DNA of 64,000 nucleotides, taken from positions 1,982,235-2,046,234 of the forward strand of contig OZ251464.1 in NCBI GenBank assembly GCA_965242595.1. Direction: 5' to 3'. The DNA is from Alphaproteobacteria bacterium (GTDB lineage: Bacteria > Pseudomonadota > Alphaproteobacteria > SP197). The notes under the pieces are model-generated. The model searched no databases and had not been told where the DNA came from. It saw only the letters and a program-made list of their open reading frames with translations. Shown here piece after piece: positions 3,001 through 58,810 of the stretch (position 1 is its first letter; each line of letters begins with the position of its first letter). Made by a program: the position numbers and the translations under genes.

Positions 3001-6000
3001 GGCCGTCACCGTCACATCCCCGCCGCTGACGGTGACACCGGCGGCGATGGTCAGCGTCCTGGCGGCGGAAAGGGCGAAGTCCGCCGCCACCGCGCCCGTT
3101 CCGGGCGCCGCCGCCACCGTCACCGTCACCGCTTCGCTGGAGGCGCCCGAAAGCGTGGCCGTCACCGACGCCACCCCGTTCGTCTCCGAGATCGACGCCG
3201 GCGACAGCGCCAGGGCCAGTGTCGGCAGCGCGTCGTCGTCGCTCAGCGTCAGCGTGACAGCGGTCGGGTTCGCCACCCCATTGCCGCCCACCACCGTGCC
3301 GGAGACCGTCACCGACTTGTCCGGCGCATCCACCATGTTGTCGTTGGCCGTCACCGTCACCGCGCCGGCGCTGGTGGTGCTGCCGGCGGCGATGGTCAGC
3401 GTCTTGGCGGTGGAAAGGTCGAAATCGGCCGCCGCCGCCCCCGTCCCAGGCGCCGCATCCACCGTCACCGTCACCGCTTCGCTGGAGGCGCCCGAAAGCG
3501 TGGCCGTCACCGTCGCCACCCCGCCGTTTTCCGAGACCGCGCTGGCCGACAGCGCCAGGGCCACGGTCGGCAGCGCGTCGTCGTCGGTGAGCGTCAGGGC
3601 GACATCCGACGGGTTCGAAAGCAGGCCGTGGCCGCCCGCCACACTGGCGGAGATCGTCACCTGCTTGTCCGGCGAGTCCACCATGTTGCCATTGGCCGTC
3701 ACCGTCACCACGCCGCTGCTGGTGGTGGCGCCGGCGGCGATGGTCAGCGTCTTGGCCATGGAGAGCGTGAAATCGGCCGCCGACGCGCCGGTCCCGGGCG
3801 CTGCCGCCACCGTCGCCACCACCGCCTCGTCCGATTTGCCCGAAAGCGTGGCCGTCACCGTCGCCACCCCGCCGCTCTCCGAGATCGCCGCCGGCGCGCG
3901 GGCCAGTGTCAGTGTCGGGGTGGGGTCGTCGTCGTTCTTGGTGACATCCACCGTCTCGTCGTCCAGGCCGTTGTACTTGCCGTCGCTACTGGCCGGGTCC
4001 AGGGTAATCTCCACCGCCAGACTCGCCGGATCGTCCCGGTCGTCGTCCACCGCCGTCACCCGCAGCGTCTGGGTGGCGTTCCAGTCGCTGGCGCTGAACA
4101 CCAGCGTCTTCGCGGTCGCGAAGGCTTGCGCATTGGCGTCGCCGGCCGCCCTGGCCAGCCGCACCTCGTCGCCATCGCCGCTGGTCGCCGTCACCGTCAC
4201 CGCCGCCGTCGGCTTGCTGGTCAGCCTCACCGTGAAGGTCTGCTCCGCTCCGCCCTCCGTCACCGTCAGCGTGCTCTCGGAGACCGTCAGCCCGGCCACA
4301 TCCACATCGGTGGTGCGCACCGTCTGCGGGCGCACGCTGGCCCCGCCAATCACATGATAGGCATCTGTGGGCTCATCCGGCGTGTCCGGGAACAGGCGCA
4401 GTGTGTAGTCGTCGTCGCCATCCACCACCTGGTCGCTCACGCCGTGCAGCGTCACGGTCTGCGCCGTCTCCCAGTTGCTGGCGGTGAAGGTCAGCCGCGT
4501 CGATGCCGCCGCCGTCCCGCCCCCCGCAGACACCAGCCCCTCATCCGACTCGTCGCTTTTCACCGCCACCGTGATGTTGGTGGTGGGCTGGCTGTTCAGC
4601 TTCACGGTGAAGGTCTCGCTGGCCCCTTCGGCCACGCTCAGCCACACCGGACAGGGCGCCCGGCGGCAGCGCGGAAAGGCCGGGGCCGTCACCAGGGCGG
4701 CGCGGTCGTCCTCCCAGATCCGCAGTTCCACATCGGCCGGGGCGGCGATGGTCAGCGTACTGCTGGGGGCGCCCTTCACCACCACCTTCTTGCGGGTCAC
4801 TGTGTCGTCCACGAGGGAGTCGATACGGTCGTCCACGGCCGTAATCGTCACCACGCCGGTGCTGGCGGTGGCGCCAGCCGCAATGATCAGCTTGGTGTTG
4901 GCGGAAAAGCTGAAATCGTCCGCCGCCGCGTTGGTTCCCGCCGTCGCCGAGACGGCGATCGTCACCGCCGCGCTGGCCGGGGTGCTCAGCCGCGCCGTCA
5001 CCGTGGTCATGCGCTCGGAACCCGGCGCCGTGGCCAGCTCCTTGATGGCGTCCGCCTCGCCCGAGATCGGGTCCGACAGCGCCAGCGTCAGCGTCGCCGT
5101 GTCGTCGTCCTCCAGCGTCAGCGTCAGCGACGATGGCGTCCCCACGTTGTTGCCGCCCGTCACCATGCCGGAGACCGTCACCGACTTGTCAGGCGAATGG
5201 ACGTTGTTGCCATTGGCGGTCACCGTCACCGTGCCGGCGCTGGCGGTGGCGCCGGCGGCGATGGTGAGCTTCGTGTTGCTGGAAAGGTCGAAATCGGCCG
5301 CCGCCGCGTTGGCCCCGGGCGCCGCCCCCACCGTCACCGTCACCGCCTCGCTCGACTTGCCCGAAAGCGTCGCCGTCACCGTCGCCACCCCGCTGCTCTC
5401 CGAGATCGACGAAGACGACAGCGCCAGCGTCACCGTCGGCAGGCTTTCGTCGTCGGTCAGCGTCAGGGTGAGATTGGACGGCGCCGCTATGTTGTTGCCG
5501 CCCACCGCGGTGCCGGAAATCGTCACCGACTTGGGCCCCGAATGGCGGTCGTTGCTATTGGCCGTCACCGTCACCGTGCCGGCGCTGGCGGTGGTGCCGG
5601 CGGCGATGGTCAGCGTCTTGGCGCTGGAAAGGTCGAAATCGGCCGCCACCGCCCCGGTTCCGGCCGCCGCCCCCACCGTCACCGTCACCCCTTCGCTCGA
5701 CTTGCCCGAAAGCGTCGCCGTCACCGTCGCCACCCCGCCGGTCTCCGAGATCGAGGAGGACGACAAGGCCAGCGTCACCGTCGGCAAGGTTTCGTCGTCG
5801 CTCAGCGTCAGGGTGACATCCGATGGCGCCACCACCCCGTTGCCGCCCGTCACCGTGCCGGAGACCGTCACCGACTTGTCCCCCGAATGGACGTCGTTGC
5901 CGCTGGCCGTCACCGTCACCGTGCCGGCGCTGGTGGTCTGCCCGACGGCGATGGTCAGCGTCTTGGCGGCGGAAAGGCCGAAATCCGCCGCCACCGCCCC

Positions 6001-9000
6001 GGTCCCAGCCACCGCCCCCACCGTCACCGTCACCGCCTCGCTCGACTTGCCCGAAAGCGTCGCCGTCACCGTCGCCTCGCCGCCCTGCTCCGAGATCGAG
6101 CTCTCCGACAGCGCCAGCGTCACGATGGGCAGGGTTTCGTCGTCGGTCAGCGTCAGGGTGAGATTGGAAGGCGCCACCACCCCGTTGCCGCCCGTCACCG
6201 TGCCGGAGACCGTCACCGACTTGTCAGGCGAGTCCACATCGTTGCCATTGGCCGTCACCGTCACCACGCCGGCGCTGGCGGTGCTGCCGGCGGCGATGGT
6301 CAGCGTGGTTCCCGTCTGGGCGAAGTCCGCCGCCACCGCCCCGGTCCCGGCCGCCGCCCCCACCGTCACCGTCACCGCTTCGCTGGAGGCGCCCGAAAGC
6401 GTGGCCGTCACCGACGACACCCCGCCGGTCTCCGAAATCGAGCTTTGCGACAGCGCCAGGGTCACCGTCGGCAGGGTTTCGTCGTCGGTCAGGGTCAGGG
6501 TCGCCGTGGTGACGGCCATGGTGGTGGAATCGGCGCTGGCCTGGTCGTTCGCCACCGTCGCCGTCACCGTCGCCTGGCGACCGGAGCTGCCCTGATGCAC
6601 GCTGTCGTTCACCGCCATGACGGTCACCGTGTCGCTGGCGGCGGTGGTGTCGCCGGCGTCGATCACGATCTGCCCCGCCGCCCCCGACGGCACCGTGAAG
6701 GCCCCGGAAACCGCCGTCACCGTCACCGTGGTGGCCGCGCTGGAGGGATGCGAGAGCGTCGCCGAGACCACCGAGCTGCCGCCGTTCTCGGCAATCGAGT
6801 CATCCGACAGCGCCAGCGTCACCCCCGGCGCCGCCTCGTCGTCGCTGATGGTCAGCGTGACGTCGTCCGGATCCGACGCGCCATCGCCGCCATCTACGGT
6901 GGCGGAGACCGTCACCTCCTTATCCGGCGCGTCGGCGGTGTTGTTCATCGCCGTCAATGTCACCACGCCGGTGCTGGTGGTGGCAGCGGCGGCGATGGTG
7001 AGCAGGGTTCCCGCCTGGGTGAAATCGGTCCCCGCCCCGGGCGAAGCCGAAACCGTGACGGTGGTCCCTTCGTTGGCCGCCTTGTCCAGCGTCGCCGTCA
7101 CCGTCGCCACCCCGCCGTCCTCCGAGATCGAGCTCTCCGACAGCGCCAGCGTCACCGCCGGCTTGTCGTCGTCTATGACCGTCACCGTCACCCCGATGGG
7201 GCGCTGCGCATGGGCCACGTTCCGCCCCACATCGCCGAGTCCGTAGTCGGCCACGACGTATCTGAGGCGCAGGGTGTTGTCCTCGTGGCCGGAGTCCGCG
7301 AGGGCATTCACGGTCACCGTCTGGGGCGTGTCCCAGGTCGTGGTCGTGAAGGTGTAGTTTTGCCCCCTCATGGGGGATAGTTGATTGTCGCCCCCCAGCG
7401 CGAGGCCGATGTCGGGGTAGAGGCCGACGCTGACCCACTGCGCCAGCCCAGGAGGCGGTTCGGTGTCCAGGACAAAGGTGAACGTCTTGCTGGCGCCCTC
7501 CTCGGTCAGGGTCATGGTGGTGGGGTTGAAGGTCACGCCTGCCGTGTCGTCGTCGGTCAGCGTCAGGTCCACCGTGGCTGGCGCCGCCACCCCATGGCCG
7601 CCCGCCATGGTGGCGGAGATCGTCACCTGCTTGTCGTTCGTATCCACCAAATTGCCATTGGCCGTCACCGTCACCGTGCCGGCGCTGGCGGTCTGCCCGG
7701 CCGCGATAGTCAGCGTCTTGGCGCTGGAGAGGGTGAAATCGCCCGCCACCGCCCCGGTCCCGGCCGCCGCCCCCACCGTCGCCACCACCGCCGCGCTCGA
7801 TTTGCCCGAAAGCGTCGCCGTCACCGTCGCCACCCCGCCAGTCTCCGAGATCGACGAGGACGACAGCGCCAGCGTCACGGTGGGCAGGGTTTCGTCGTCG
7901 CTCAGCGTCAGCGTGACATCCGACGGCGCCGCCACCCCGTTGCCGCCCGTCGCCGTGCCGGAGACCGTCACCGATTTGTCCGGCGCATCCACATCGTTGC
8001 CATTGGCCATCACCGTCACATCGCCGCTGCTGGCGGTGCTGCCAGCGGCGATGGTCAGCGTCGTGGCGGCGGAGAGGTCAAAGTCGCCCGCCACCGCCCC
8101 GGTCCCGGCCGCCGCCCCCACCGTCACCACCACCGCTTCGCTCGACTTGCCCGAAAGCGTCGCCGTCACCGACGAAACCCCGCCGGTCTCCGAAATCGAC
8201 GCCGGCGACAACGCCAGGGCCACCGTCGGCAGCGTGTCGTCTTCCGTAATGGTCAGGGTGACATTCGCCGGGTTCCCCACGCCGTGGCCGCCCGCCACCG
8301 TGCCGGAGACCGTCACCGACTTGTTCGCCGCGTGGACATCGTTGTCTTCGGCCGTCACCGTCACATCGCCGCTGCTGGCGGTGGCATTGGCGGCGATGGT
8401 GAGCGTGTTCTCCATGGAGAGCGTGAAGTCGTCCGCCCCCGCCCCGGCCCCGGCCGCCGCCCCCACCGTCACCACCACCTCCGCGCTCGATGCGCCCGAA
8501 AGCGTGGCCGTCACCGACGCCACCCCGCCGTTTTCCGCAATCGACGCCGGCGCCAGCGCCAGCGTCACCATGGGCGCCGTCTCGTCGTCGGTGAGCGTCA
8601 GCGCCGCGCCGGTCACGGCCATGGTCTCCGAGTTGGCGGCTGCCTGGTCGTTGGCCGCCGTGCCCGTCACCGTGGTGGCGCGCCCGGCGCCGTCAGCGCC
8701 GCCCTGATACACGCTGTCGTCCACCGCCGCCACGGTCGCCGTGTCGCCAGCGTTCACGGTATCGCCAGCGGCGATGACGATCACAGCGTCCGAACCCACC
8801 GTATAGGCCCCGTCCACCGCCGTCACCGTCACCGTGGTATCCGCGCTGGAGGGATGGGAGAGCGCCGCCGCTACCGTGGTCTCGCCGCCGTTCTCGCCGA
8901 TCGAGGCTGCCGACAGGCTCAGCGTCACACCCGGGGCATCGTCGTCGTCGGTCAGCGTCAATGCGACCCCGGTCGGGGCCGCCACGCCATTGCCGCCGCT

Positions 9001-11430
9001 GGCCGTGGCGGCAACCGTCACCTGCTTGTCGGGCGCATCGCCGTCGTTGTCCTCGGCCGTCAGCGTCACGCCGTCGCCGCCGCTGGCGGTGGCCCCGGCG
9101 GCGATGGTCAGCGTCCCCCCGCCGGAAAGGGTGAAATCGTCCGCCGCCGTCACCGTCACCACCACCGCCTCGCTGGAGGCGCCCGACAGCTTCGCCGTCA
9201 CCGTCGTCATCTCGCCATTTTCCGAAATCGAAGCCGACGACAGCGCCAGCGTCACGACCGGCAGCGCGTCGTCGTCGGTGAGCGTCAGCGTCACCGCCGC
9301 CGGCGCCCTCACATCGCCGCTCGCCTCCCCCGCAACCAGCATCCGCTTGTCCGGCGAGTCGATGCTGTTGCCCACCGCCGTAATCGTCACCGTGCCGGTG
9401 CTGGCGGTGGCCCCGCTGGCGAACACCAGCTCCGTCGTCGCCGACAGCGTGGCATCGCCCACCATGGCCCCCGCCCCGGGCGTCACCGTCACCGTAACGG
9501 TGGCCGCCCCGGCGGCCGCCTCGTCCAGCGTCGCCGTCACCGTCGTCACGCCGCCGGTCTCGGAGATGGTGGAGGACGACAGCGCCAGCGCCGCCTTGGG
9601 CACGGCGGTGATGGGGAGCCACTCGCCGTAGTAGTAATAAGTTGTTATGCCGTCGGGGAAGAGGCCGCCATGCGTGACGAGGACGACCACGCCGTCATTG
9701 TCGATCATCGCCTGGGTAAGACGGATCGTCCTGGACCCGCCGCTGCCGGTGGCCCGGCTGCAAATGGCGCCCTCGGTCGGCGCGGGGCCGCGATTTGAGG
9801 CGAGTCGCCTGACCGTCCTGTAAGCGCACGCCCAGACCCATCGATCCCCCAAGCTCCTCCCGGTAACGGTGATCGTTTGCGGGTCGGTCTTGCCCTTCAG
9901 CGACGCCGTGGTGACGTCATAGGTACCGAGCCCCGTTACCCAGCGCCTGTCGGTCCCGGTGGGCACGGTGCCGTCATTGTCGGTGACGGTCAGCGTCACG
10001 CTGGCCGGGTTCGCCACCCCGCCGCCGGCCGCGCTGCCCGACACCGTCACCTGCTTGGCGGCCCCGCGCATATCGTTGTTGACGCCCGTCACCGTCACCG
10101 TGCCGCTGCTGGCGGTCGCCCCGGCGGCGATGGTCAGCGTCCGCGTCAGAGACAATGTGAAGTCCCGCGCCGTCGCCCCGGTGCTGGGCGCCGCCGCCAC
10201 CGTCACCGTCACCGCCGCGCTGGAGGCGCCCGAAAGCCGCGCCGTCACCGTCGCCACCCCGCCGCCCTCCGAGATCGACGAGGGGGACAGCCCCAGCGTC
10301 ACCATCGGCGTGCCTTCGTCGTCGATCAGCGTCAGCGTGGTGGCTTCGGGCGCCCGGATGTCGCCAGCAACGCTGCCCGAAATCGTCACCTGCGCGTTGG
10401 GCGCGTCGGCGCTGTCGTCCATGGCGGTGATGGTGACTGTGCCGCTGCTGGCGGTGGCGCCGTTCGCGAACACCAGCCTCGTATTGCCAGAGAGCGTGAA
10501 ATCCGTGCCCGCGCCGGGGCTGGCCGCCACCGTGACGGTCGCCGCCCCGGAGGCCGGCTTGTCCAGCACCGCCGTCACCGTGGCCACCCCGCCATTTTCC
10601 CGGATCGACGAAGACGACAGGATCAGCGTCGCCTCCGGCAGCGAGACGATGGGCACCCATTCGGCGTAGAGATAGAAATGTCTGCCCGACGACTCCTCCA
10701 ACACCACAATGACCACGCCGTCATTGTCGATCATCGCCTGGGTCAGCGTGATCGAGTTGGGCGTGTTGTTGGTGGTAAGCTGGGTGCAGCCCGCGCCCGG
10801 TCCGGTGTTGGTGTAACCCTGGGTTGGCTGCGTGGCGTCTCTGGTGGCGCAGGCCCAGAAATCGACGAGGCGCTCCCTACCCCCTCGCGTCCTCACCGCC
10901 AGTGGCTGGGCGGTGGTCTTGGCCAGCAGCGGTGACGTGGTGATGTCCCAGTCGTTGGCTGTAGGGGCGCCGTTTCGCCACGTGGTCGCGGTGACCGACG
11001 GCTCGTTGTCGGCGATGGTCAGCGTCACGTCGGCCGGGCCGGTCAGGCTGCCGCCGCCGCCCGCGGCGCTGCCCGCCACCCTCACCATCTTGTCGGGCGC
11101 GTCGATGTCGTTGTTGACCGCCGTAATCGTCACCGTGCCGGCGCTGGCGGTGGTGTTGGCGGCGATGGTGAGCGTGGTGCCCGTCAGCGTGTAATCCGCC
11201 GCCCGGGCGCCGCTGGAGGCGACCGGCGCCACGCTGACCGTCACCGTCACCGCCGCGCTGTTCGGCGTGTTCAGACTGGCCGTCACCGAGGCCACCCCGC
11301 CACCCTCCGATATCGAAGCCGGCGACAGGCGCAAGCTCACACTCTGCGCCCAGGCCGGCGCCGCGGCGGCAAGCGCCAGCGCAGCCAGCAGGACGGCGAA
11401 ACCCACGCGGGAAGCGCGACAACCCCTCAC
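1..11430 (-). CDS. Giant Calx-beta-like repeat adhesin, paralog 2. This is the 5' partial, about 3800 codons; the gene continues past the window start.
   Basis: Reverse translation of 1..132 gives VTTTDNDDAPGVTLALSPAAISESGGAATVRATLSRPSGAATTI, the same repeat type as the large ORF. The frame stays open from the window edge up to a GTG at 11428-11430 that follows an in-frame TAG. The N-terminus reads VRGCRASRVGFAVLLAALALAAAAPAWA/QS, a signal peptide with an AWA cleavage motif. A GGGGGA Shine-Dalgarno-like motif sits ~5 nt upstream. It is absent from the ORF track because no stop lies within the window. Confidence 0.8.
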   Translation of the reverse strand, partial: MRGCRASRVGFAVLLAALALAAAAPAWAQSVSLRLSPASISEGGGVASVTASLNTPNSAAVTVTVSVAPVASSGARAADYTLTGTTLTIAANTTASAGTVTITAVNNDIDAPDKMVRVAGSAAGGGGSLTGPADVTLTIADNEPSVTATTWRNGAPTANDWDITTSPLLAKTTAQPLAVRTRGGRERLVDFWACATRDATQPTQGYTNTGPGAGCTQLTTNNTPNSITLTQAMIDNDGVVIVVLEESSGRHFYLYAEWVPIVSLPEATLILSSSSIRENGGVATVTAVLDKPASGAATVTVAASPGAGTDFTLSGNTRLVFANGATASSGTVTITAMDDSADAPNAQVTISGSVAGDIRAPEATTLTLIDDEGTPMVTLGLSPSSISEGGGVATVTARLSGASSAAVTVTVAAAPSTGATARDFTLSLTRTLTIAAGATASSGTVTVTGVNNDMRGAAKQVTVSGSAAGGGVANPASVTLTVTDNDGTVPTGTDRRWVTGLGTYDVTTASLKGKTDPQTITVTGRSLGDRWVWACAYRTVRRLASNRGPAPTEGAICSRATGSGGSRTIRLTQAMIDNDGVVVLVTHGGLFPDGITTYYYYGEWLPITAVPKAALALSSSTISETGGVTTVTATLDEAAAGAATVTVTVTPGAGAMVGDATLSATTELVFASGATASTGTVTITAVGNSIDSPDKRMLVAGEASGDVRAPAAVTLTLTDDDALPVVTLALSSASISENGEMTTVTAKLSGASSEAVVVTVTAADDFTLSGGGTLTIAAGATASGGDGVTLTAEDNDGDAPDKQVTVAATASGGNGVAAPTGVALTLTDDDDAPGVTLSLSAASIGENGGETTVAAALSHPSSADTTVTVTAVDGAYTVGSDAVIVIAAGDTVNAGDTATVAAVDDSVYQGGADGAGRATTVTGTAANDQAAANSETMAVTGAALTLTDDETAPMVTLALAPASIAENGGVASVTATLSGASSAEVVVTVGAAAGAGAGADDFTLSMENTLTIAANATASSGDVTVTAEDNDVHAANKSVTVSGTVAGGHGVGNPANVTLTITEDDTLPTVALALSPASISETGGVSSVTATLSGKSSEAVVVTVGAAAGTGAVAGDFDLSAATTLTIAAGSTASSGDVTVMANGNDVDAPDKSVTVSGTATGGNGVAAPSDVTLTLSDDETLPTVTLALSSSSISETGGVATVTATLSGKSSAAVVATVGAAAGTGAVAGDFTLSSAKTLTIAAGQTASAGTVTVTANGNLVDTNDKQVTISATMAGGHGVAAPATVDLTLTDDDTAGVTFNPTTMTLTEEGASKTFTFVLDTEPPPGLAQWVSVGLYPDIGLALGGDNQLSPMRGQNYTFTTTTWDTPQTVTVNALADSGHEDNTLRLRYVVADYGLGDVGRNVAHAQRPIGVTVTVIDDDKPAVTLALSESSISEDGGVATVTATLDKAANEGTTVTVSASPGAGTDFTQAGTLLTIAAAATTSTGVVTLTAMNNTADAPDKEVTVSATVDGGDGASDPDDVTLTISDDEAAPGVTLALSDDSIAENGGSSVVSATLSHPSSAATTVTVTAVSGAFTVPSGAAGQIVIDAGDTTAASDTVTVMAVNDSVHQGSSGRQATVTATVANDQASADSTTMAVTTATLTLTDDETLPTVTLALSQSSISETGGVSSVTATLSGASSEAVTVTVGAAAGTGAVAADFAQTGTTLTIAAGSTASAGVVTVTANGNDVDSPDKSVTVSGTVTGGNGVVAPSNLTLTLTDDETLPIVTLALSESSISEQGGEATVTATLSGKSSEAVTVTVGAVAGTGAVAADFGLSAAKTLTIAVGQTTSAGTVTVTASGNDVHSGDKSVTVSGTVTGGNGVVAPSDVTLTLSDDETLPTVTLALSSSSISETGGVATVTATLSGKSSEGVTVTVGAAAGTGAVAADFDLSSAKTLTIAAGTTASAGTVTVTANSNDRHSGPKSVTISGTAVGGNNIAAPSNLTLTLTDDESLPTVTLALSSSSISESSGVATVTATLSGKSSEAVTVTVGAAPGANAAAADFDLSSNTKLTIAAGATASAGTVTVTANGNNVHSPDKSVTVSGMVTGGNNVGTPSSLTLTLEDDDTATLTLALSDPISGEADAIKELATAPGSERMTTVTARLSTPASAAVTIAVSATAGTNAAADDFSFSANTKLIIAAGATASTGVVTITAVDDRIDSLVDDTVTRKKVVVKGAPSSTLTIAAPADVELRIWEDDRAALVTAPAFPRCRRAPCPVWLSVAEGASETFTVKLNSQPTTNITVAVKSDESDEGLVSAGGGTAAASTRLTFTASNWETAQTVTLHGVSDQVVDGDDDYTLRLFPDTPDEPTDAYHVIGGASVRPQTVRTTDVDVAGLTVSESTLTVTEGGAEQTFTVRLTSKPTAAVTVTATSGDGDEVRLARAAGDANAQAFATAKTLVFSASDWNATQTLRVTAVDDDRDDPASLAVEITLDPASSDGKYNGLDDETVDVTKNDDDPTPTLTLARAPAAISESGGVATVTATLSGKSDEAVVATVAAAPGTGASAADFTLSMAKTLTIAAGATTSSGVVTVTANGNMVDSPDKQVTISASVAGGHGLLSNPSDVALTLTDDDALPTVALALSASAVSENGGVATVTATLSGASSEAVTVTVDAAPGTGAAAADFDLSTAKTLTIAAGSTTSAGAVTVTANDNMVDAPDKSVTVSGTVVGGNGVANPTAVTLTLSDDDALPTLALALSPASISETNGVASVTATLSGASSEAVTVTVAAAPGTGAVAADFALSAARTLTIAAGVTVSGGDVTVTASDNDVDAPNKQVTVSGTAAGGNNVANPTAVTLTLENDEAAPTVTVTLSSASISENGGMTTASAVLSGKSSAATTVTVQGLQNIFTVPTGAGGRIVIAAGATTSADRVTITALDNDVDAGANAPYVLIGETNDHRVNAAAHPQVTITDDDTAGLALAPTPSTTARLQTDEGGGTASFTVALTSQPTGDVELDLAVAGSGTSEGAVSPGSLTFTASNWQTAQTATLTGQDDTLADGSQNYQVTVEVDQTNTADDTYDMVATATVYAVNHDDEYGLVTGTVSGQATEGGGTASFTVRLRTQPAQAVTVTVSSQDASEGRVSPSTLTFQPGDWSTTQAVTVTGEDDNIDDGTVTWNVRLDPASGDTNYNALANVDVPVTTTDNDAAPGVTLALTPAAISENAGVATVRATLSRPSGAATTITVTGVTGAFTVPSGAAGQIVIAAGDTVNASGTVTITAVNDNVHQGSPGRQANVTAIVTNDRASADSTTMAVTAATLRLNDDDAAPGAVLALSPASISENGGTSAVSATLSRASAVATTVTVMAAQGAAYRVGSDATIVIAAFATAAASDTAAITAVDNDIDEPNRTATVTATLTNDRGAGSVTGATLTLEDDDAAPGVTLSVQPATITENGGAAAVSAVLERPSSQPTTVTVTAQSGVFTVPAGAAGRIVIAASATTASGTVTITAVNNQVDATDNMVTVGAAATNGHGVGSVTGASLTISDDDQAAIVMSETTSTSSRLRTSEDGSTATVDITLATGPTANVVIDVTSSNTGEGTASPSSLTFTSSDWQTAQTVTLTGVNDPSPGTADGSQNYRVTLAVNTADTADSFYDALSDVFIYAVNADDELGLDVGTVTGQASEGRGQASFTVKLATDPGQATMSSQAVTVTVTSQDAGEGRVSPSALTFTAGSSGNWNTNQVVTVTGVDDNIDDGTVTWDVRLDTSSASGSDYNGIADVDVSVTTTDNDDAPGVTLALSPAAISESGGAATVRATLSRPSGAATTI
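260..4900. repeat. Multi-kb block of gene 2 homologous (roughly 85-95% nt) and largely collinear with gene 1 segment 20150..26500
   Basis: Antisense ORFs are near-identical at a constant offset of 19,897 bp: 1397..1624 vs 21294..21521, 1628..1912 vs 21525..21809, and 1913..2215 vs 21810..22112. The offset shifts by ~1.7 kb further on (4475 vs 26100). Confidence 0.7.
9620..9965 (-). other. Insert module copy in gene 2 (second)
   Basis: Verified reverse translations: VTLTVTDNDGTVPTGTDRRWVTGLGTYDVTTAS... and ...GSRTIRLTQAMIDNDGVVVLVTHGGLFPDGITTYYYGEWLPITAV. Confidence 0.55.
10640..10975 (-). other. Insert module copy in gene 2 (N-proximal)
   Basis: Verified reverse translations: VTLTIADNEPSVTATTWRNGAPTANDWDITTSP... 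and ...QAMIDNDGVVIVVLEESSGRHFYLYAEWVP. Confidence 0.55.
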
Positions 11431-11482
11431 TCGGTCCCCCTCGACAGGCGAGCGCAGCTATCTGGCAAGCCCCCATCAAGAA

Positions 11483-11488
11483 TGTCAA
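11483..11488 (-). promoter_or_regulatory. Candidate -35 box (TTGACA) of the promoter for giant gene 2
   Basis: Minus strand reads GGTGTTGACATTCTTGATGGGGGCTTGCCAGATAGCTG ~50 nt upstream of the GTG start. The -35 hexamer is perfect but the -10 is weak. Confidence 0.3.
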
Positions 11489-11690
11489 CACCTTACAGCC
11501 AGAAACTCATATCCCGCTTCACAGGGGCCGAACCGGTGCCCGGACGGCGGCGGAGGCCATCGCATCTGGCAACGAATGCACCAGCGGAAAGCCGGGAGAG
11601 GACCTGCGATGGCAGGCAATTGCAAAGGCCCCCGCCAGTTCGGCACAGACCCGGAATTGCCGCGCCAAAGCCACAAGAACGATAGCGCCA

Positions 11691-11699
11691 GCACAAACC
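11691..11699. repeat. Homopolymeric C9 tract (G9 on minus), ~260 bp upstream of the giant gene 2 start
   Basis: Direct reading: cca ccccccccc a at 11688..11700. Confidence 0.9.
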
Positions 11700-11808
11700 A
11701 CCCCCCCCCAAGCCCGTGACCATACCTCCAGGCGCGCTGTGCGGCGGACGCCGTTATGCGCCGGATAGCCATGCCGGACGCCAATTCTTGCGGTGCTAAG
11801 CCACGACG

Positions 11809-12546
11809 CTAAGCCACGACAGGGGCGGTCGCTGCCGGAACGGACGGCCCCTCGACAGCGATGCTGCGATCCGCCGCCATCGCAATATGCCGCGCCACGC
11901 GCTCGTCCAGGACGCTCTCCTGGGTATCGAGTTCAAGCGCGAAACGAATCAGCAGCCGTCTGTACAGGTCGAAATCGCGCTCTTGCCGCGCTGCGGCCAA
12001 TTGCCGAATGGCAAGATCGTCGCGCCGCAGCGGCCCGCATACGCGCATGAGGTGAAGGGCGGCGTTGCCCCGCTCCGAGAGGCGGCTTCCCCGCTGGATG
12101 GCGTCTTCCAATGCCTCGTCGAACGCCGTTCGCCCCGCCTCGGTCCATCGCGCCTTGAGGGCCGTGTAAAGGGCCGGCGTCGCCACCCCCAGCCAGCACC
12201 CGGTGTCATCGAGGGGCGCAAGGGATATGCCCGAATCGCCCAGCGCGCCCCCCACAACCTCGGCAGCCCGCGCAAGTTCCGCCCCCATGGCGACCACCCC
12301 TTCGCCGGAGACGATCGGCCGCGCGGATGCCGGCGGCAGCAGGGTGCCAAGCACCGCCGCTTCGTCCGGATCGGCGACCTCCAGCGCCCCGGGGTCGTCG
12401 CGCCAGTCGAGGCTGTGCGCAAGATAGAGCGCGGGATCGCCTGCGAATGAAAGCAAGGGTGGGCAAAAATGCATCCAGTCGCCAACATGGGCGGCGGACA
12501 TGCTAAAAAACCCCCGCAGGGTTGCGGCTGCGCGCGTGTCAACCAT
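11809..12546 (-). CDS. Hypothetical protein (245 aa). Its start overlaps the stop of the upstream ORF by 8 nt.
   Basis: ORF with mixed amino-acid composition (W, H, F, Y, C), unlike the low-complexity antisense frames. It is in the same orientation as its neighbours and translationally coupled to 12539..13315. I recognise no family. Confidence 0.5.
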   Translation of the reverse strand: MVDTRAAATLRGFFSMSAAHVGDWMHFCPPLLSFAGDPALYLAHSLDWRDDPGALEVADPDEAAVLGTLLPPASARPIVSGEGVVAMGAELARAAEVVGGALGDSGISLAPLDDTGCWLGVATPALYTALKARWTEAGRTAFDEALEDAIQRGSRLSERGNAALHLMRVCGPLRRDDLAIRQLAAARQERDFDLYRRLLIRFALELDTQESVLDERVARHIAMAADRSIAVEGPSVPAATAPVVA

Positions 12547-13315
12547 GAGCGGCCTCCAGCACCATGGATTCCTCTACCGTCTGCACCACCGACCCGTCTT
12601 TCTCCGACACGATGACGTGATCGAAAACCCACCTGTAGATTCGCTGGCTTTCGCTGTCTGCCAACGGGTTGCGCCCGAGCCAATGGATATATTTGCCGCG
12701 ATTGTCTTCGCTCATGTGGATTGCCCGTAGCTCCAGGCGGCCGGTGATCGCGTCGTGCGGGATGCGGACTTCCCATGTCCAGGCCCGCGCGGTGTTCGGC
12801 TGTCCCCTGACGATGGTGAACCCGGTCTCCGGAGGCCGATTCCCGGGCCCGGGGGCGCGGCCCTCAATGTAGTCGCTGAGCGTGTCGTAGTGGGCGAGAA
12901 TATACCGTTCGAAAGCATCCTTCCAGTCGCGCAACGGCACATCCAGCGTCCGGAAGGCCGCTTGCCGCGCTGTCGTCCCGAGTGGTGGATCGGTGTGGAT
13001 CTTGCCCGCCCACCAGCCGCCGCTGTCGAACGGCGTGGCCCCCCTCGCATCCGCAGGCCAGGCAACGCCTTCGGCCTCGCTCAAGACAAATACGATCCAG
13101 CCATAGCTGTCCTCCGCCCGCAGGACGTAGAAGTAGTAGGGCTTGCCGAGGATGCCAAGCCCATGCTCGGCCGCCAGGGTTTGCGGGCGGGCAGCGGGCG
13201 CAGGCCACTTTCCCTGGATGGCTGCGGTCACCAATTCGCGCCAATCCTCGCCACCATGAAGGTGGTAGTTGTGCAGCCCTCGGGTCAGCAAACGGTTCAT
13301 GGCCCCATCATACAC
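12539..13315 (-). CDS. Hypothetical protein (258 aa)
   Basis: Complex, non-repetitive composition (YYFYVLRAEDSYGWIVFVLSE..., WTWEVRIPHD...). It sits 69 nt downstream of the protease gene stop. I recognise no family. Confidence 0.55.
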   Translation of the reverse strand: MYDGAMNRLLTRGLHNYHLHGGEDWRELVTAAIQGKWPAPAARPQTLAAEHGLGILGKPYYFYVLRAEDSYGWIVFVLSEAEGVAWPADARGATPFDSGGWWAGKIHTDPPLGTTARQAAFRTLDVPLRDWKDAFERYILAHYDTLSDYIEGRAPGPGNRPPETGFTIVRGQPNTARAWTWEVRIPHDAITGRLELRAIHMSEDNRGKYIHWLGRNPLADSESQRIYRWVFDHVIVSEKDGSVVQTVEESMVLEAAHG

Positions 13316-13384
13316 CGGGAGCAGCGGGAATTGTCACCCCCCAATCGGCATGACGGCCTGCCGGGAGGGCGCCGGGCGGGGCGT

Positions 13385-14041
13385 TCAGGGCTTGGGTTCC
13401 GGCCGTAATGGCGGGCAGCTGTCCGCGCCATCCGCCTGGCGTTTCTGGCGCTGGCGATAGTATTCGACCAGTCGGTACGGGTCGTGGCCGACGGAGCGCG
13501 AAATCCGGTGGCGAACCTCGCGCACGGCGGCGATGACGGGATCGTCTCTCATGGCGATGCCACCTCTCCGGGAAGCTGCGACTTCACGCGCCATGGCGCC
13601 GCCGCGGCGCCAGAGAGTAGCCCGTTTCAGCTTGATCAGGGGGCGGTCGGGCGACTCCGGGCGCGGCCCCAGCGCGCGGGTGGCGCTATCCGCCACCAGG
13701 TCCAGCGCCGTCAGCACGATCTGGCCGATCAGCGGCTCGCTCAAGGGCGGGCCGACGATGCACTCGGTGATCATGAAGCGGTTGCCGATGTGAACCGTCA
13801 CCGGCCCGGCCACCGGGCGGGTTTCCTTGCGTTGGTCCGCATAGGTCACGACGACCTCGCGCTGCTTCCTCAGACCCAGGCGGCTGACCACGTTCTCCGG
13901 CAACACGAGCATGACCGCGCCGGTATCCACCACGCCTAGCACCGTCATGCGGCGAAGCTCGGATTCGGGGCGCAAACCCCGGCGGACGATGCAGCGGTCG
14001 CCGGTGTTTTCTAATTCCACCGAAGCGACGATCTCACCCAT
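13385..14041 (-). CDS. Retropepsin-like (clan AA, DTGA motif) aspartyl protease with a ~80-aa C-terminal extension
   Basis: Reads MGEIVASVELENTGDRCIVRRGL...LGVVDTGAVMLVLPENVVSRLGL...IGNRFMITECIVGP, with the catalytic D-T-G-A signature and the overall pattern of the PF13650/PF13975 type. There is a strong SD (GAGGAGGAAG) 8 nt upstream of the ATG at 14041; the ORF track extends it to a GTG at 14089. The C-terminal tail (MRDDPVIAAVREVRHRISRSVGHDPYRLVEYYRQRQKRQ) is unassigned. Confidence 0.6.
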   Translation of the reverse strand: MGEIVASVELENTGDRCIVRRGLRPESELRRMTVLGVVDTGAVMLVLPENVVSRLGLRKQREVVVTYADQRKETRPVAGPVTVHIGNRFMITECIVGPPLSEPLIGQIVLTALDLVADSATRALGPRPESPDRPLIKLKRATLWRRGGAMAREVAASRRGGIAMRDDPVIAAVREVRHRISRSVGHDPYRLVEYYRQRQKRQADGADSCPPLRPEPKP

Positions 14042-14061
14042 CGGCTTCCTCCTCACCGGCA

Positions 14062-14190
14062 TCCTGTCGCAACCGGAGCACCATGCCACAGGCGCCGCCG
14101 GGCGGGTGTCGGGTGGGTGTCACGGGGGTGTCGTGGACATGTTGCAGGGCGGCCGCGGCAGGCGGCGCGGGGCGGCGGGGGCCTGCCCAG
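14062..14190. repeat. Intergenic element R, copy 1. It lies between hicB and the protease gene.
   Basis: ~100-bp core is shared with 14627..14758 and 15151..15245. It contains GTGTC-type repeats phased at exactly 11 bp (14106, 14117, 14128, 14139). Its gene-proximal end reads GGTTGCGACAGGAT on minus. Confidence 0.7.
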
Positions 14191-14208
14191 GCCGTGTCCG
14201 GGCGCCGG

Positions 14209-14415
14209 TTAGACGGTGGCCGGTTCGGGCAGCGCCCCATCCTCATTGCGGACGATCTCCAGCCACTCGTCCACGATCCGGCACAGCTCGCGATACACCG
14301 CCACTTCGTCGTCGCCATGACAGCACGGGCCGATGACCCCGGGACAGGAACCGACAAAACACCGGTCCTCGTCCGACCATGCGACTCGCTTGATGTATTT
14401 CGCGCTGTCCTTCAT
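14209..14415 (-). CDS. hicB: HicB-family antitoxin, short form without a DNA-binding domain (68 aa)
   Basis: Reads MKDSAKYIKRVAWSDEDRCFVGSCPGVIGPCCHGDDEVAVYRELCRIVDEWLEIVRNEDGALPEP, matching the HicB-like antitoxin pattern (Y..v.WseEDg.yva..P.lpGc...GdT.eEA.......I.ewLE). It has a 4-nt ATGA overlap with hicA and a GAGGAG SD inside the hicA 3' end. Confidence 0.75.
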   Translation of the reverse strand: MKDSAKYIKRVAWSDEDRCFVGSCPGVIGPCCHGDDEVAVYRELCRIVDEWLEIVRNEDGALPEPATV

Positions 14416-14606
14416 GTCTGCGACTCCTCTATCCTTCGCCGCACCTCTCGTTCCTGGTAGGGCTTGGCATCGCCACCCAGGCTTCCGGAAATCGTCACAC
14501 GCTGCCCGTTCGGGTGGCGATAATTTCTGTGGCTGCCCTTGCCGCCGCGCGAAACGAACCCCGCCCGCTCCAGGTCTCTCACCAACGCTGCGACTTTACG
14601 CGGCAT
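14412..14606 (-). CDS. hicA: HicA-family mRNA interferase toxin (64 aa)
   Basis: Reads MPRKVAALVRDLERAGFVSRGGKGSHRNYRHPNGQRVTISGSLGGDAKPYQEREVRRRI. It has the G-KGSH-x-y-HP signature of HicA/YcfA-like proteins and sits directly upstream of hicB with overlap. Confidence 0.8.
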   Translation of the reverse strand: MPRKVAALVRDLERAGFVSRGGKGSHRNYRHPNGQRVTISGSLGGDAKPYQEREVRRRIEESQT

Positions 14607-14626
14607 GGTGTCGAGGCCGACATGGC

Positions 14627-14758
14627 CAACATTCTATCGCAACCGGGGCGCCATGGTCACAGGCGCTGCCGGGAGGGTGTCGGGCAGGTGTCACGGGCGT
14701 GTCGTGGGCGTGTTGCAGGGCGGCCGCGGCAGACAGCGCGGGGTGGCGGGGGCCGGGT
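14627..14758. repeat. Intergenic element R, copy 2, immediately upstream (minus sense) of hicA
   Basis: Four GTGTC/GTGTT repeats at 14677, 14688, 14699 and 14710 with exact 11-bp phasing. A TTGCGATAGAAT (-10-like TAGAAT) lies 25 nt before the hicA ATG on minus. Confidence 0.7.
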
Positions 14759-14762
14759 GGAA

Positions 14763-15044
14763 TTATCCCGAAGCTCGTTGAACTTCAGCCGCCCCGCCAT
14801 GCCGTGGCCCGCGCTGCCCAACCATCCCGGAGCACGCCAGGCCCGCGGTCGGTTCGGGCAGCGCCCCATCCTCATCGCGGAGGATCTCCAGCCACTCGTC
14901 CACGATCCGGCACAACTCCCGATACACCGCCACTTCGTCGTCGCCGTGACAGCACGGGCCGATGACGCCGGGGCAGGAACCGACGAAGCACCGATCCTCG
15001 TCCGACCACGCGACTCGCTTGATGTATTTCGCGCTGTCCTTCAT
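14763..15044 (-). CDS. Second, orphan HicB-like copy (hicB') with a 26-aa C-terminal extension and no hicA partner
   Basis: MKDSAKYIKRVAWSDEDRCFVGSCPGVIGPCCHGDDEVAVYRELCRIVDEWLEILRDEDGALPEPTAGL... is ~93% nt identical to hicB over ~250 bp. It has an intact ATG (15044) and a GAGGAG SD. The ORF track extends it to 15083 through the tandem repeat. Confidence 0.5.
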   Translation of the reverse strand: MKDSAKYIKRVAWSDEDRCFVGSCPGVIGPCCHGDDEVAVYRELCRIVDEWLEILRDEDGALPEPTAGLACSGMVGQRGPRHGGAAEVQRASG

Positions 15045-15057
15045 GTCCGCGACTCCT

Positions 15058-15130
15058 CTATCCTCCGCCGCGCCGCTCTCCATCCCTCGCCGCGCCGCTC
15101 TCTATCCTTCATCCTTCGCCGCGCCGCTCA
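15058..15130. repeat. Imperfect 22-bp tandem triplication replacing hicA upstream of hicB'
   Basis: Units are ctatcctccgccgcgccgctctc / catccctcgccgcgccgctctc / tatccttcatccttcgccgcgccgctcattcc. They correspond to the 3' end of hicA (RRRIEE codons and the hicB SD) present once at 14416..14440. Confidence 0.7.
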
Positions 15131-15150
15131 TTCCTGGCACAGTTGGCACC

Positions 15151-15245
15151 CTATCGCAACCGGGCCACCACCACAATAGGCGCTATCGGGAGGGTGCCGC
15201 AAGGGTGTCGTGAACATGTTGCGCGGCCGCCGCCCGACACCCGCC
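15151..15245. repeat. Intergenic element R, copy 3, partial and diverged. It lies between the giant gene 1 stop and hicB'.
   Basis: Starts ctatcgcaaccgg like copies 1 and 2. It retains three 11-bp-phased GTG(C/T)C repeats at 15194, 15205 and 15216. Confidence 0.55.
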
Positions 15246-15286
15246 CGACACCCCTGCGGCACCCACCCGACAGGCGGCGCGGGCGC

Positions 15287-18200
15287 CTACCAGGCCAGGC
15301 GCAGTTCCAGGGCCAGGCCGTGTTCGGGATCGGCGACGCCCTCGTTGCGGCTGGCCTCGATGGCGAGGCTCAGCACGCTGCCCAGCCCCCACCGCTGGCC
15401 CAGGCTGTAGCGGCGCTCGCCCCGGCCCAGGGCCATGGCGCCATAGGGGGTCGCGGTGGCGACGCCGCCCCAGGCGGGCAGGCCATAGCCCAGCTCGCTC
15501 TCCAGCCGGGCGCCCCGGCCGACGCTGGCGCCGTTCTCGTCGCCGCCCGCCATGCCGTCCTGCCACAGGCGCGTCAGGCCGCTATCGGCCACGCCCCAGG
15601 CGGGGGCGAGCTGGAACGACAGGCCGCGCCCGTCGCCGTCGGGGTTCAGGTGGAAGGCGCCAGACGCGCCCCATTCCTCCAGATCGCTGCGATGGGCCAG
15701 CAGGGCCCGCCCGCCCAGTTCGGCCCCCAGGCCGCCGCCGGAATCGCTCAGCGCGATGCTGCCGCCCAGCTCCACGCCCATGCCGCTGGCGCCATCGCCA
15801 CCGTCCCAGCGCAGCCCCGCCTCCAGGGACGGCGCCAGCGACCAGCCGCCATCCAGCGACCAGCTGCGGCTTCCCGCCGCCGCCAGCCGGGCGCGCTGGG
15901 TGGCCACGGTCAGGGCGGCGATCACCTCGCCATTGTCGTCCAGGGCATAGCGGGTGGCCTCCACCGACGCCTTCAGGTCCAGCGCCAGCCCGTCGGCGGC
16001 CAGCAGCGGCAGCGCCCCGCCCATGGCGGCGGCCAGCATGGAACTGTCGCCCGCCTGCCAGCCATAGCGCTCGCGGATGGCGCTATCGGTCATGCGCAGA
16101 TCGCCGCGCCCATAGCCCAGGGCCGCCCACAACCGGCTGCCGTCGGCGCCGGCCCAGCCCAGATAGGGATGGACGGCCGACATGGCGCTCTCGTGGTCGC
16201 CCCGGATGGCGCCCTCGTCGCCATCGCTGCGGTCGCTATAGGCGATGGCGCTCTCGAAGCGCGAGAGCGCCAGCCCGGCGGTGAAGCCGTCGCCCAGCAC
16301 CGCATCGGCGCCGAGATGGGCCGCGAACAGCCTGCCCGACCAGTCCAGCGCCGCCTGCTTGCGTTCCAGATCGCGCCAGTCGCCGGCGCCCCACAGCACC
16401 AGCGAGGAGGCGCCGCCATCGTCGTCATCGCCGCCACTCAGGGCCAGGGTGAAGCCTTCGCCGCCCAGCAGCTCCTTCCACGAGCTGCCGCCGTCCTCCA
16501 GCGCCTCGCCCTTGGAGCGCAGGAAGCCCGCCGCCGCGTCCAGGCCCTGCGCCGCCAGCCCACCGCCGCCACCGGCCGGGCCTTCCAGGCGGGAGGAGAT
16601 GGCGTCCAGCGCGCTGCCCCACATGGCCCGCGACAGCTCCGGCAGAATGGAGCGGTTGATGGCCTTCAGCCGCGCCCGCGCCAGGTCCAGATTGGCCACC
16701 ACCTCGACGGTGAAGACCAGCTCCGCCCGCTGGCCGTCGATATCGGTCGCCGTCCAGCTGTAGCTGCGCAGCTCGAACGCCGCGCCCGGCGTCCCCGACA
16801 GGCGGCGCCCGGCGCGGGCGATGCCGTCCGGCAGCGTCTCCGGCGCCAACGCATATTGCAGCTGCCCGTCGCCGCCGCTCGCCAGCGGCAGGTCCAGCGG
16901 CGCGATGGCCTCGTCCACCGTCCAGGTCAGCGCCTGCGGGAAGTCGGCCTCGGCGAAGGACGGGCGCGTGTCCTCATAGCCGACCGCAAAGGGCGAGAAT
17001 GTCGTCACCCCGGGCGCGCACACCCGCATCCGCTCCGCCTCCCAGGACGACCCCGCCACCGGTTCCCAGGCGCTGCCGTCATGATGCAGCAGCACGGGTT
17101 CGCGCCCCGCCGCCGCCGCCAGCAGAGCCTCGCTTACCGGCAGGCAGATATGCAGCCCCGCCGCCAGCGCCCCCGCGACCTGGATATCCACCGCCGACTG
17201 CGCCGCGCCGTCCCGCCCCAGGGCGAAGCCCGACCCATCCACCACCGGCAGCGCCCGGTCCGAAAGCGGCCTGAAGCTCATCTCCACCATGCGTCCGCCG
17301 ATGCTGAACACCGCCTCCGCCTCCCGCAACGGCGCCAGGATGCGGCTGTCCTCTTCCACCGGAGCGGAGAGCGCCGCCTGCACCCCGTCATAATCGCCGC
17401 CGGAGGCGCTGTGGGTCAGCAGCGCCGCGTCGGCATAGTCGTCCTCGTCCCCCCGCGCCGTCACCGTCACCGTCTGCGCCTGGTTCCAGTCCGCCGCCGT
17501 GAAGGTCAGGCCGGTGGGCGCGGGCGTCACATCCGGGTTGTCGCTCGCCACCGCCAGCGTCACCGGCCCGGTGGGCTCGCTGGTCAGCGCCACCGTGTAG
17601 TCGGCCCCCGGCCCGTCCGCCGTGGTCGCCACCGCCGCCGGCGCGAAGGCCAGCCCCCTGCTGTCGTCGTCGGCGACGGTCAGGGTGGCGGCGGCGACGG
17701 CCACGCTTTCGCCGGCGGCGCTGGCCAGGGCGTTGGCGGCCGCGCCCGTCACCCGCACCGATATGTCCGGCGCATCCACGGCGTTGTCGTTGGCCGTCAC
17801 CGTCACCTGGCCGCTGCTGGCGGTAGCAAAGGCGGCAAAGGTCAGCGTCGTTCCCGCCTGGGTGAAATCGCCCGCCACCGCGCCCGCCACCGGCGCCGCC
17901 TGAACCGTCACCGTGGTCGCCGCCGCCGAGGGATGGGACAGCAGCGCCGTCACCCGCGTCACGCCGCCGTTCTCGGAGATGGTGGCCGGGTTCAGCACCA
18001 GCGTCACCGCCGGCGCCGCGTCGTCGTCGCTCGTGGTCACATCCACATGCTCGACCAGGCCGTCATAGATGGCATCGCCGCTCGCCGTCCGCAGCCGCAC
18101 CTGCCATGCGACATCGCCATCGTCGATGGCGTCGTCCACCCCGGTCACCGTCACCCTCTGGGCCCGGTTCCAGTTCCCGGCGCCGAACACCAGCGCGGCC

Positions 18201-57409: not shown

Positions 57410-58810
57410 TCAGGACGAACCGTCGCCACCCTTCGGAAAGCCGTCGCCGTCATGCCGGTCGCCGGTCAGTTCCGGGGCCTGGAGCGCGCGGGCTTCCAGT
57501 TCGATCGGCGTGATTTCGTCAACCATGCTGCCCTTCGGCGCCGCGCCCAGCCTCTCGAATCTCCGCGCAGTCGGCAGAACGCGGCCCTCGAGCGAACCGA
57601 CGCTCATGTTGTAGCGATCGACCGCTTGACGAAGAGCTTTGCCGAGATTGCCCATGCGCCCACCGAAAAATTTGATCCGTTCGAACAATTCGCGGGCAAG
57701 GTCGAACACGGCCTGGGTGTTCTCCGCCAGCTTGTGCTGCTGCCATCCATAAGCGATCGCCTTCACCAGGGCGATGAAGCTCATCGGGGTGGCGATCAGA
57801 ACGCGGTTCGAGACCGCCTGCTCGAACAACTCCGGATCGCGTTCGACGGCCGCCGAATAAAACGGCTCGCCGGGAATGAACATCACGACAAAGTCGGGCG
57901 TGACCGACAGCGCCTGCCAGTATTCCTTCGACGCAAGATCGCGCACATGGTTGCGGACATGATGAACATGGTTCGCCATGTGCTGGGCGCGTTCCTCCTC
58001 GTCGCTGGCCTCCACCGCGGCGAGATACCCCTCCAGAGGCGTTTTCGCATCGACGACGATGGATTTATCACCGGGCAGGCGGATGATGGCATCGGGCCGC
58101 AGACGGCGCTCCTCGCCGACGGTCGCTTGCGTCACGAAATCCACATGCTCGCTCATGCCCGCCATTTCGAGGACGTTCTTCAGCTGATATTCGCCCCAGC
58201 GCCCGCGCGTCTGCGGCTGCCGGAGCGCCTGCACCAGCCGATTCGTCTCCGTCTTCAAACGCAACTGCCCCTCGCTAAGGGTTTTAACCTGCTCCGTGAC
58301 GGCGCTATAGGCCCCTTCCCGCGCCTTTTCGATCTCGCCGACCTTTTGCTCGAACTTGTCCAGGCTCTCGCCGATCGGCTTGACCAGCGTCTCGATCGCC
58401 TGCTGCCTCCTGGCCAGATCCTCGTCGGAACTGGCCTTGTGCTTTTCGAACCGCTCCGTCACCCGATCCAGGAAATTTCTGCTGTTCTTTTCAAGCGCCT
58501 CGGCGGCCAGCAGCGCGAATTTTCGCTCGATCTCGGCAGCCATGCCCTTCAGCTCCTCGACGCGAGCCTCATGGTTCTGCCGTTCCGTCTTCAAACTGGT
58601 CTCGGCGATAGCCTTCTCCCCCAACAGCCGCTCGCGCTCGGACCGCTCGCGCTCCACAGTCTCCGCCGCACTCGCCTCCGCCGCATTCGCCCGCTCCTCA
58701 GCAGCGGCAGTCCTGGAGCGTTCCGGGCGAACGAAGGCCAGCCAAGCGGCGATACCCCCAAGGCCGAACCCGATCACCGCCATCAAAACATCGCCCATCT
58801 CGAACGTCAT
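57410..58810 (-). CDS. rmuC: DNA recombination protein RmuC
   Basis: 466 aa with an N-terminal TM segment and a coiled-coil region. The conserved RmuC block is LRQPQTRGRWGEYQLKNVLEMAGM...VDFVTQ...RPDAIIRLPGDKSIVVDAK. Confidence 0.8.
   Translation of the reverse strand: MTFEMGDVLMAVIGFGLGGIAAWLAFVRPERSRTAAAEERANAAEASAAETVERERSERERLLGEKAIAETSLKTERQNHEARVEELKGMAAEIERKFALLAAEALEKNSRNFLDRVTERFEKHKASSDEDLARRQQAIETLVKPIGESLDKFEQKVGEIEKAREGAYSAVTEQVKTLSEGQLRLKTETNRLVQALRQPQTRGRWGEYQLKNVLEMAGMSEHVDFVTQATVGEERRLRPDAIIRLPGDKSIVVDAKTPLEGYLAAVEASDEEERAQHMANHVHHVRNHVRDLASKEYWQALSVTPDFVVMFIPGEPFYSAAVERDPELFEQAVSNRVLIATPMSFIALVKAIAYGWQQHKLAENTQAVFDLARELFERIKFFGGRMGNLGKALRQAVDRYNMSVGSLEGRVLPTARRFERLGAAPKGSMVDEITPIELEARALQAPELTGDRHDGDGFPKGGDGSS

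Follow-up and report, generated by a model that had tools for sequence, protein, structure and literature searches.

Type II toxin-antitoxin (TA) systems of the HicAB class, of which HicAB of E. coli K-12, HicA3B3 of Yersinia pestis and HicBA of S. pneumoniae are described examples, have the toxin gene first in the operon, an overlap between the toxin stop codon and the antitoxin start codon, and a toxin with a HicA_toxin domain and a G-S-H motif. HicA cleaves RNA, HicB's N-terminal part binds HicA and blocks its histidine, and this histidine is essential in the S. pneumoniae toxin (PMC6159526). The C-terminal DNA-binding domain is not universal among the antitoxins, since HicB proteins without it exist (PMC2701414), and pairs of HicA with UPF0150 proteins have been listed in a survey of marine TA systems (PMC12654330). 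Antitoxin genes may also be found without a toxin: in marine MAGs, HicB has been listed as one of the prevalent orphans (PMC12654330), and orphan antitoxins are abundant in Klebsiella, for which an anti-addiction role has been discussed (PMC7192599). Orphan HicB genes are already documented, and the locus described here is a well-resolved further example of this common pattern.

The locus lies in a 64,000-nucleotide stretch of an Alphaproteobacteria bacterium genome (contig OZ251464.1), here called the window, in which the genes and elements described below are on the minus strand unless stated otherwise. An intact module of hicA (14412..14606) and hicB1 (14209..14415) is preceded by an orphan antitoxin gene, hicB2 (14763..15044), and by a remnant of a second hicA (15045..15137). 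As in the orphan antitoxins of degraded TA loci, an antitoxin has been kept after toxin loss, near intact paralogues or in a genome that has them; unlike typical orphans, this one forms a tandem array with the intact sister module and lies next to a legible deletion scar, and because the scar can still be read, the history of the locus can be reconstructed. The history that we consider probable, from comparison of the sequences, is an old tandem duplication with later deletion of the toxin gene, which would have left an extra antitoxin gene under purifying selection.

Both ORFs of the intact module were found exactly where the preliminary description had placed them, and the ATGA shared by the hicA stop and the hicB1 start was likewise read from the sequence. 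The 64-residue HicA scored 41.5 bits against the Pfam profile HicA_toxin (PF07927; cut-off 27 bits) and covered profile positions 4-55 of 58, which agrees with the family assignment that had been put forward. Comparison with the HicA structure 1whz (E=4.9e-6) aligned GKGSHRNY with KGGHRLY, with the G-S-H motif kept. There was no match to HicA in NCBIfam, and the sole match given by PADLOC was a weak HicA-like one (E=0.0016). From what is established for the family, the protein would be an RNase of small size that relies on a conserved histidine for catalysis and whose active site is blocked by HicB. The gene order, the stop/start overlap and the toxin domain with its motif are those of the HicAB systems named above; the predicted N-terminal domain of the antitoxin also has its best HicB matches, which are not significant, in 4p78, 6hpb and 6u0i. 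The window antitoxin differs from those systems in lacking a C-terminal RHH/HTH domain, in having a Cys/His-rich motif and in scoring below all Pfam thresholds for HicB.

The hicB1 product (68 aa) consists of the N-terminal domain only and gave nothing in Pfam at E<0.01. At E<=10 the only match was UPF0150 (PF21748; E=0.037, 14.4 bits against a gathering threshold of 27.3), and the profile by which the antitoxin was expected to be recognised, HicB_lk_antitox (PF15919), gave no match even at this level. NCBIfam also had no match to hicB1, neither HicB protein of the window reached a curated threshold in Pfam or NCBIfam, and searches of PDB sequences with HicB, using both the single protein and a family profile, returned only spurious Kv4 and designed-protein matches. 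The family to which the window HicB belongs comprises 163 clusters of proteins that are mostly 76-83 aa long. PF21748 was matched at E<=0.01 by 25 of its 39 aligned members, and the five matching relatives that were scored individually reached 19.9-25.7 bits, all under the 27.3 cut-off. The window protein is therefore like the stand-alone HicB-like proteins of UPF0150 and the TTHA0281-TTHA1013 type (PF21748) in being a single domain of similar size (~70-80 aa in those proteins), but unlike them in score: the gathering threshold is 27.3 bits, whereas the window protein reaches 14 and none of the relatives shown exceeds ~26.

Three relatives (P0082, P0105 and P0118) carry the same N-terminal domain fused to a C-terminal Pfam HicB module (PF05534) that scores above threshold, at 46-52 bits. 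Solved HicB structures have an N-terminal fold that is partly RNase-H-like. An AF2 model of the hicB1 protein (pLDDT 87) has a beta-beta-beta-alpha core, for which the best Foldseek TM-scores were 0.60-0.66 (2dsy, 6u0i, 4p78 and 6hpb), all non-significant (E>=0.95, probability <=0.6); the best of these was 2dsy (TTHA0281; TM 0.66), and 6u0i, 4p78 and 6hpb are HicB chains. In 41 of 77 family loci, a full and translationally coupled hicA lies directly upstream. On the basis of the relatives, the operon pairing and the predicted fold, we have accepted the 68-aa protein as a short, N-domain-only HicB-type antitoxin. Neither window copy has a C-terminal RHH/HTH DNA-binding domain, so the canonical autoregulation by HicB is not expected.

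The subfamily alignment contains a Cys/His cluster, CxxxxC..GPCCHGDDE...C, that is invariant or nearly so, and the corresponding residues in the window hicB are C19, C24, C31, C32, H33 and C45. Canonical HicB sequences are not known to have such a cluster, and we take its position to be that of the toxin-contact region of canonical HicB/UPF0150 ('PG..tqG.t.eEA'). The cluster may bind a metal or have a redox role.

Upstream of the intact module, hicB2 encodes 93 residues beginning with MKDSAKY and is present as a called protein, P0001 (NCBI/ENA). The preliminary description had reported a second hicB of ~93% identity, with an intact start and SD, about 350 bp upstream; the sequence contains a direct repeat of 232 nt at 93% identity (14218-14449 / 14847-15078), far beyond chance, the SD (GAGGAG, 8 nt before the ATG) is identical to that of hicB1, and 348 nt separate the hicB2 stop from the hicB1 start. 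Within the 63-residue core the two proteins differ at 2 residues. Their 3' ends are separated by a 58-nt indel: hicB1 ends in ...LPEPATV*, whereas the tail of hicB2, ...LPEPTAGLACSG... (..LPEPTAGL..), is close to the family consensus and has atypical codon-position GC (GC3 0.63). Tails vary throughout the family, in which other 68-aa members have different ends, so the divergence of the two tails says little and the ~63-aa core is what matters.

In place of a second toxin gene, the hicB2 start is preceded by the last ~45 nt of hicA, expanded into an imperfect 22/29-nt tandem triplication with an in-frame TGA and no HicA ORF. The three repeat units start at 15056, 15078 and 15107, successive starts being 22 and 29 nt apart; TRF reported 15066-15107 (period 22, 1.9 copies, 95%). 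It had been stated that only a tandem triplication occupies the position of hicA. The imperfect repeats are indeed there, but they are not foreign to the gene, since the repeat unit is the last ~25 nt of hicA itself (codons ..EVRRRIE..). Because its hicA frame is interrupted by a TGA and lacks a usable start, this segment cannot give a HicA product. The proposed excision of hicA from the second copy is borne out by this homologous 3' remnant and its in-frame stop; the presence of the remnant before hicB2 shows that hicA was deleted there and not inserted into copy 1.

The coding segments alternate with three related intergenic elements: A (14042..14208), between hicB1 and an Asp-protease gene; B (14607..14762), downstream of hicB2 and upstream of hicA; and C (15138..15286), between the stop of a giant gene and the hicA remnant. 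A ~120-nt sequence is duplicated between A and B (14060-14183 vs 14630-14754) at 87-90% identity; the third copy, 15145-15286 in element C, is more divergent but fuller, with an extra 35-nt arm. The three copies, also delimited as 14063-14208, 14634-14762 and 15145-15286, lie within 1.2 kb and no other is found in the 64-kb window. The element was absent from 79 related loci searched with blastn, and an exact-pattern scan of JGI metagenomes gave zero matches. All three elements end in a CCGGTTGCGAYAG box; the whole window contains 3 matches to it, where 0.18 would be expected. Each element also holds three to four tandem 11-bp units of GACACCCNCCC (TRF period 11 at 14099-14133, 14688-14713 and 15230-15272), and in element C the array stands in inverted duplicate, giving a hairpin with 45-bp arms directly after the giant gene's stop. 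The RNA fold of the element C hairpin (15183-15273) has a free energy of -96 kcal/mol with z=-5.0, whereas A and B, at z about 0, fold no better than shuffled sequence. An Rfam search of 13300-15400 yielded sub-threshold chance matches only, to leuA-Halobacteria (27 vs 47.9 bits) and to miRNA families.

Element B holds a candidate sigma-70-like promoter for hicA-hicB1, GTGACC-N18-TAGAAT at 14631..14660, recognised by its consensus match only. It is the only promoter-like site in 13300-15400 (shuffle mean 0.1), and the CCGGTTGCGAYAG box of element B forms part of it. The 11-bp period of the array, that of a helical turn, upstream of a promoter-like site suggests a regulator-binding array. Upstream of hicB2, the corresponding site is degenerate (TTGTGG..TAGGGT, ~6/12 by eye, vs 9/12 for the hicA copy), which makes the expression of hicB2 uncertain; it may perhaps be expressed by read-through from the giant gene across the strong hairpin.

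Over 63 codons, hicB1 and hicB2 differ by 9 synonymous and 2 non-synonymous changes, corresponding to a dS of about 0.25, a dN of 0.014 and an omega of about 0.055; at least 9 of 11 changes would be synonymous by chance with P=5e-5. An omega of this size indicates purifying selection on both copies, although a copy-vs-copy value does not place the selection in time relative to the deletion of hicA. When the changes were polarised with ten outgroups, the orphan branch received 4 synonymous changes and at most one conservative replacement; the inactivating mutations that had been considered for the second copy are absent, and the orphan hicB2 shows no visible decay. A dS of about 0.25 means that the duplication is not recent, which goes against the earlier suggestion of a recent rearrangement. 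The two copies are mutually closest (94% over 189 nt; no outgroup exceeds 90.5%) and have the derived residue states K6/I8/A12/R46 in common. This closeness, the shared derived residues and the lineage-specific element together favour duplication within the lineage over separate acquisitions. An assembly artefact was ruled out, as the copies are 6-7% apart and structurally different.

A plain tandem duplication cannot account for the upstream unit being the one with the truncated hicA; the least that the history requires is duplication followed by deletion and slippage. A unit of element, hicA and hicB would have been duplicated in tandem in this lineage, the likely route being unequal recombination between the flanking ~120-nt intergenic elements. 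About 150 nt of hicA in the upstream copy (codons ~1-46) would later have been deleted, the last codons surviving because the SD and translation-initiation region of hicB lie within them, and the remnant would afterwards have been expanded by slipped 22/29-nt repeats. If expressed, hicB2 would most likely supply extra HicB, which could raise the HicB:HicA ratio and so counter the HicA next to it, or could act on HicA paralogues or on mobile elements that bring in hicA, and the buffering of HicA by an extra hicB, as proposed earlier, is plausible.

The state of hicA was compared at 77 related hicB-like genes from many phyla, these being the family members with enough upstream sequence. The toxin gene was full at 41, disrupted or truncated at 18 and absent at 18. 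The 3' remnants of hicA start at codons 27-51 and have unrelated upstream flanks, which points to independent losses in which the hicB initiation region was kept each time. The remnants of the window and of loci L001 and L048 all start at hicA codons ~45-47, and a shared breakpoint or a mobile orphan cassette was considered for them; it was rejected because their flanks differ and the starts span codons 27-51 over the family. That the hicB initiation region had to be preserved is the simpler reading of where the remnants start. The neighbours of the class with no hicA are unrelated, being housekeeping genes, HigBA-like pairs or the Asp protease. Two pairs of orphans in the same orphan context gave dS 0.33 with omega 0.04 (L017/L019) and dS 0.26 with omega 0.13 (L033/L052), similar to the omega of 0.02-0.14 for intact hicAB pairs. 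Several genomes have hicB in multiple copies; OZ251532.1 has three, of which one has a full hicA (L004), one a match to hicA residues 11-63 (L003) and one no hicA (L006). At L081/L082 (2810-2998, which is 5810-5998 of L011) tblastn found a full-length hicA before hicB where no gene was called. The exact HicA sequence of the window is absent from the protein collection. Since gene callers can miss intact hicA genes, counts of 'orphan' HicB that depend on annotation may be inflated.

The intact reading frame of hicB2 might alternatively belong to a silent relic, unexpressed or unneeded and simply not yet decayed. The degenerate promoter-like site in element C, the strong hairpin upstream and a C-terminal tail unlike that of hicB1 (with its GC3 of 0.63) all fit such a gene. 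We nevertheless regard it as unlikely: 9 synonymous against 2 non-synonymous changes at a dS of 0.25 and an SD and start codon the same as those of copy 1 speak against it, and family orphans that share an orphan context keep an omega of 0.04-0.13 while tails are variable in any case. Somewhat more improbable still is a toxin-independent role for this HicB-like protein, for instance through the Cys/His cluster, for which orphans would be kept rather than for neutralising HicA. It would account for purifying selection in a family of which nearly half the loci are without an intact hicA, and for a (near-)invariant, subfamily-specific CxxxxC..GPCCHGDDE motif in proteins with no DNA-binding domain. 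On the other side, translational coupling to hicA persists in 41 of the 77 members, beside the orphans no alternative partner gene is conserved, and we place the motif at the canonical toxin-contact region.

Other alternatives concern how the two copies came to lie together. An intact hicAB and an already orphaned hicB cassette could have been acquired horizontally and independently, side by side, with no duplication in situ. The module is mobile across phyla at 84-88% DNA identity, orphan hicB genes with hicA 3' remnants occur in other genomes (e.g. L001 and L048), and a dS of 0.25 is large for a local duplicate; but the window copies are each other's closest relatives with derived residues in common, both are followed 3' by the same lineage-specific element that all other loci lack, and the remnant is unlike those of L001 and L048 in breakpoint and flanks. 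We therefore give two separate acquisitions very little credence. The gene-element-gene-element layout, with inverted GCAAC...GTTGC pentamers in each element and a long imperfect palindrome in element C, also recalls integron-type cassettes separated by attC-like sites. That reading is extremely improbable and was rejected: the core sites, read directly off the sequence, do not fit RYYYAAC/GTTRRRY, elements A and B form no hairpin (z about 0), no integrase was found in the window, and the array abuts a chromosomal gene of 13,619 aa and not attI. Duplication in this lineage followed by loss of the toxin gene accordingly remains the preferred history.

The module forms part of a 3.8-kb island of small genes (11457-15287) with a GC3 of 0.71-0.88, against 0.91-0.92 in the giant genes that flank it. 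These are an adhesin-like gene at 15287-56146 (13,619 aa) and a second at <1-~11430 (>3,800 aa), which is cut by the left edge of the window; Calx-beta, He_PIG and LapA domains are encoded by both. Long plus-strand ORFs at 886-7380 and 7381-9798 were rejected as genes, being antisense shadows (GC1 0.9). Beyond the 13,619-aa gene, 57410-58810 and 59009-60370 encode an RmuC-family protein and a pentapeptide-repeat protein, which are unrelated to hicAB. Within the island, two ORFs at 11809-12546 and 12539-13315 (245 and 258 aa; 8-nt overlap; GC3 ~0.76) had no match in Pfam, NCBIfam or PADLOC and may be an uncharacterised two-gene module of the acquired island. Adjoining hicB1 is a gene for a clan-AA (retropepsin-like) aspartic protease (13385-14041). 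In two MAGs, one labelled Nitrospirales and one Binatia, orphan hicB genes likewise have this gene directly upstream, with 84% DNA identity (L001 5464-5879 and 10369-10436; L042 4499-4924 and 5492-5917). The window ORF has ~80 extra codons with a lower GC3 (0.74), and because part of this extension matches a separate location in L001, a fusion with a small downstream gene by loss of a stop codon is suggested.

MAGs bearing the labels Nitrospirales, Binatia, Alphaproteobacteria and Gammaproteobacteria contain loci that match the hicAB genes and the Asp-protease gene with 84-88% DNA identity, and identity at this level across phyla implies horizontal spread. On its lower GC3, the island itself was probably acquired horizontally. 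Among L001-L011 and L042, hicB proteins 81-88% identical to the window's come from MAGs with the labels Nitrospirales, Alphaproteobacteria, Azotimanducaceae and other Gammaproteobacteria, and Binatia, and L011 has one at 76%. The comparisons point to recent cross-phylum exchange of hicB in a shared habitat.

For annotation, the gain is that a small island, probably acquired, between two giant adhesin-like genes can be labelled as containing an intact HicAB module and an orphan antitoxin. The locus offers a legible snapshot of TA decay, in which duplication would have come first, then deletion of the toxin gene, retention of the initiation region and expansion of repeats. As a methodological warning, tallies of orphan antitoxins taken from annotation need care, as the case of L011 vs L081 illustrates. 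The family survey lends quantitative support to selection that maintains orphan HicB genes. A broader claim, that in the Cys/His-rich short-HicB subfamily toxin loss with long-term, selected retention of the antitoxin is the rule, affecting about half of the loci through independent deletions and with omega no higher than for intact pairs, is put forward only tentatively, and we think it rather doubtful. If it is true, a stand-alone HicB would be a transferable immunity against HicA circulating among co-resident phyla, or would have a toxin-independent function.
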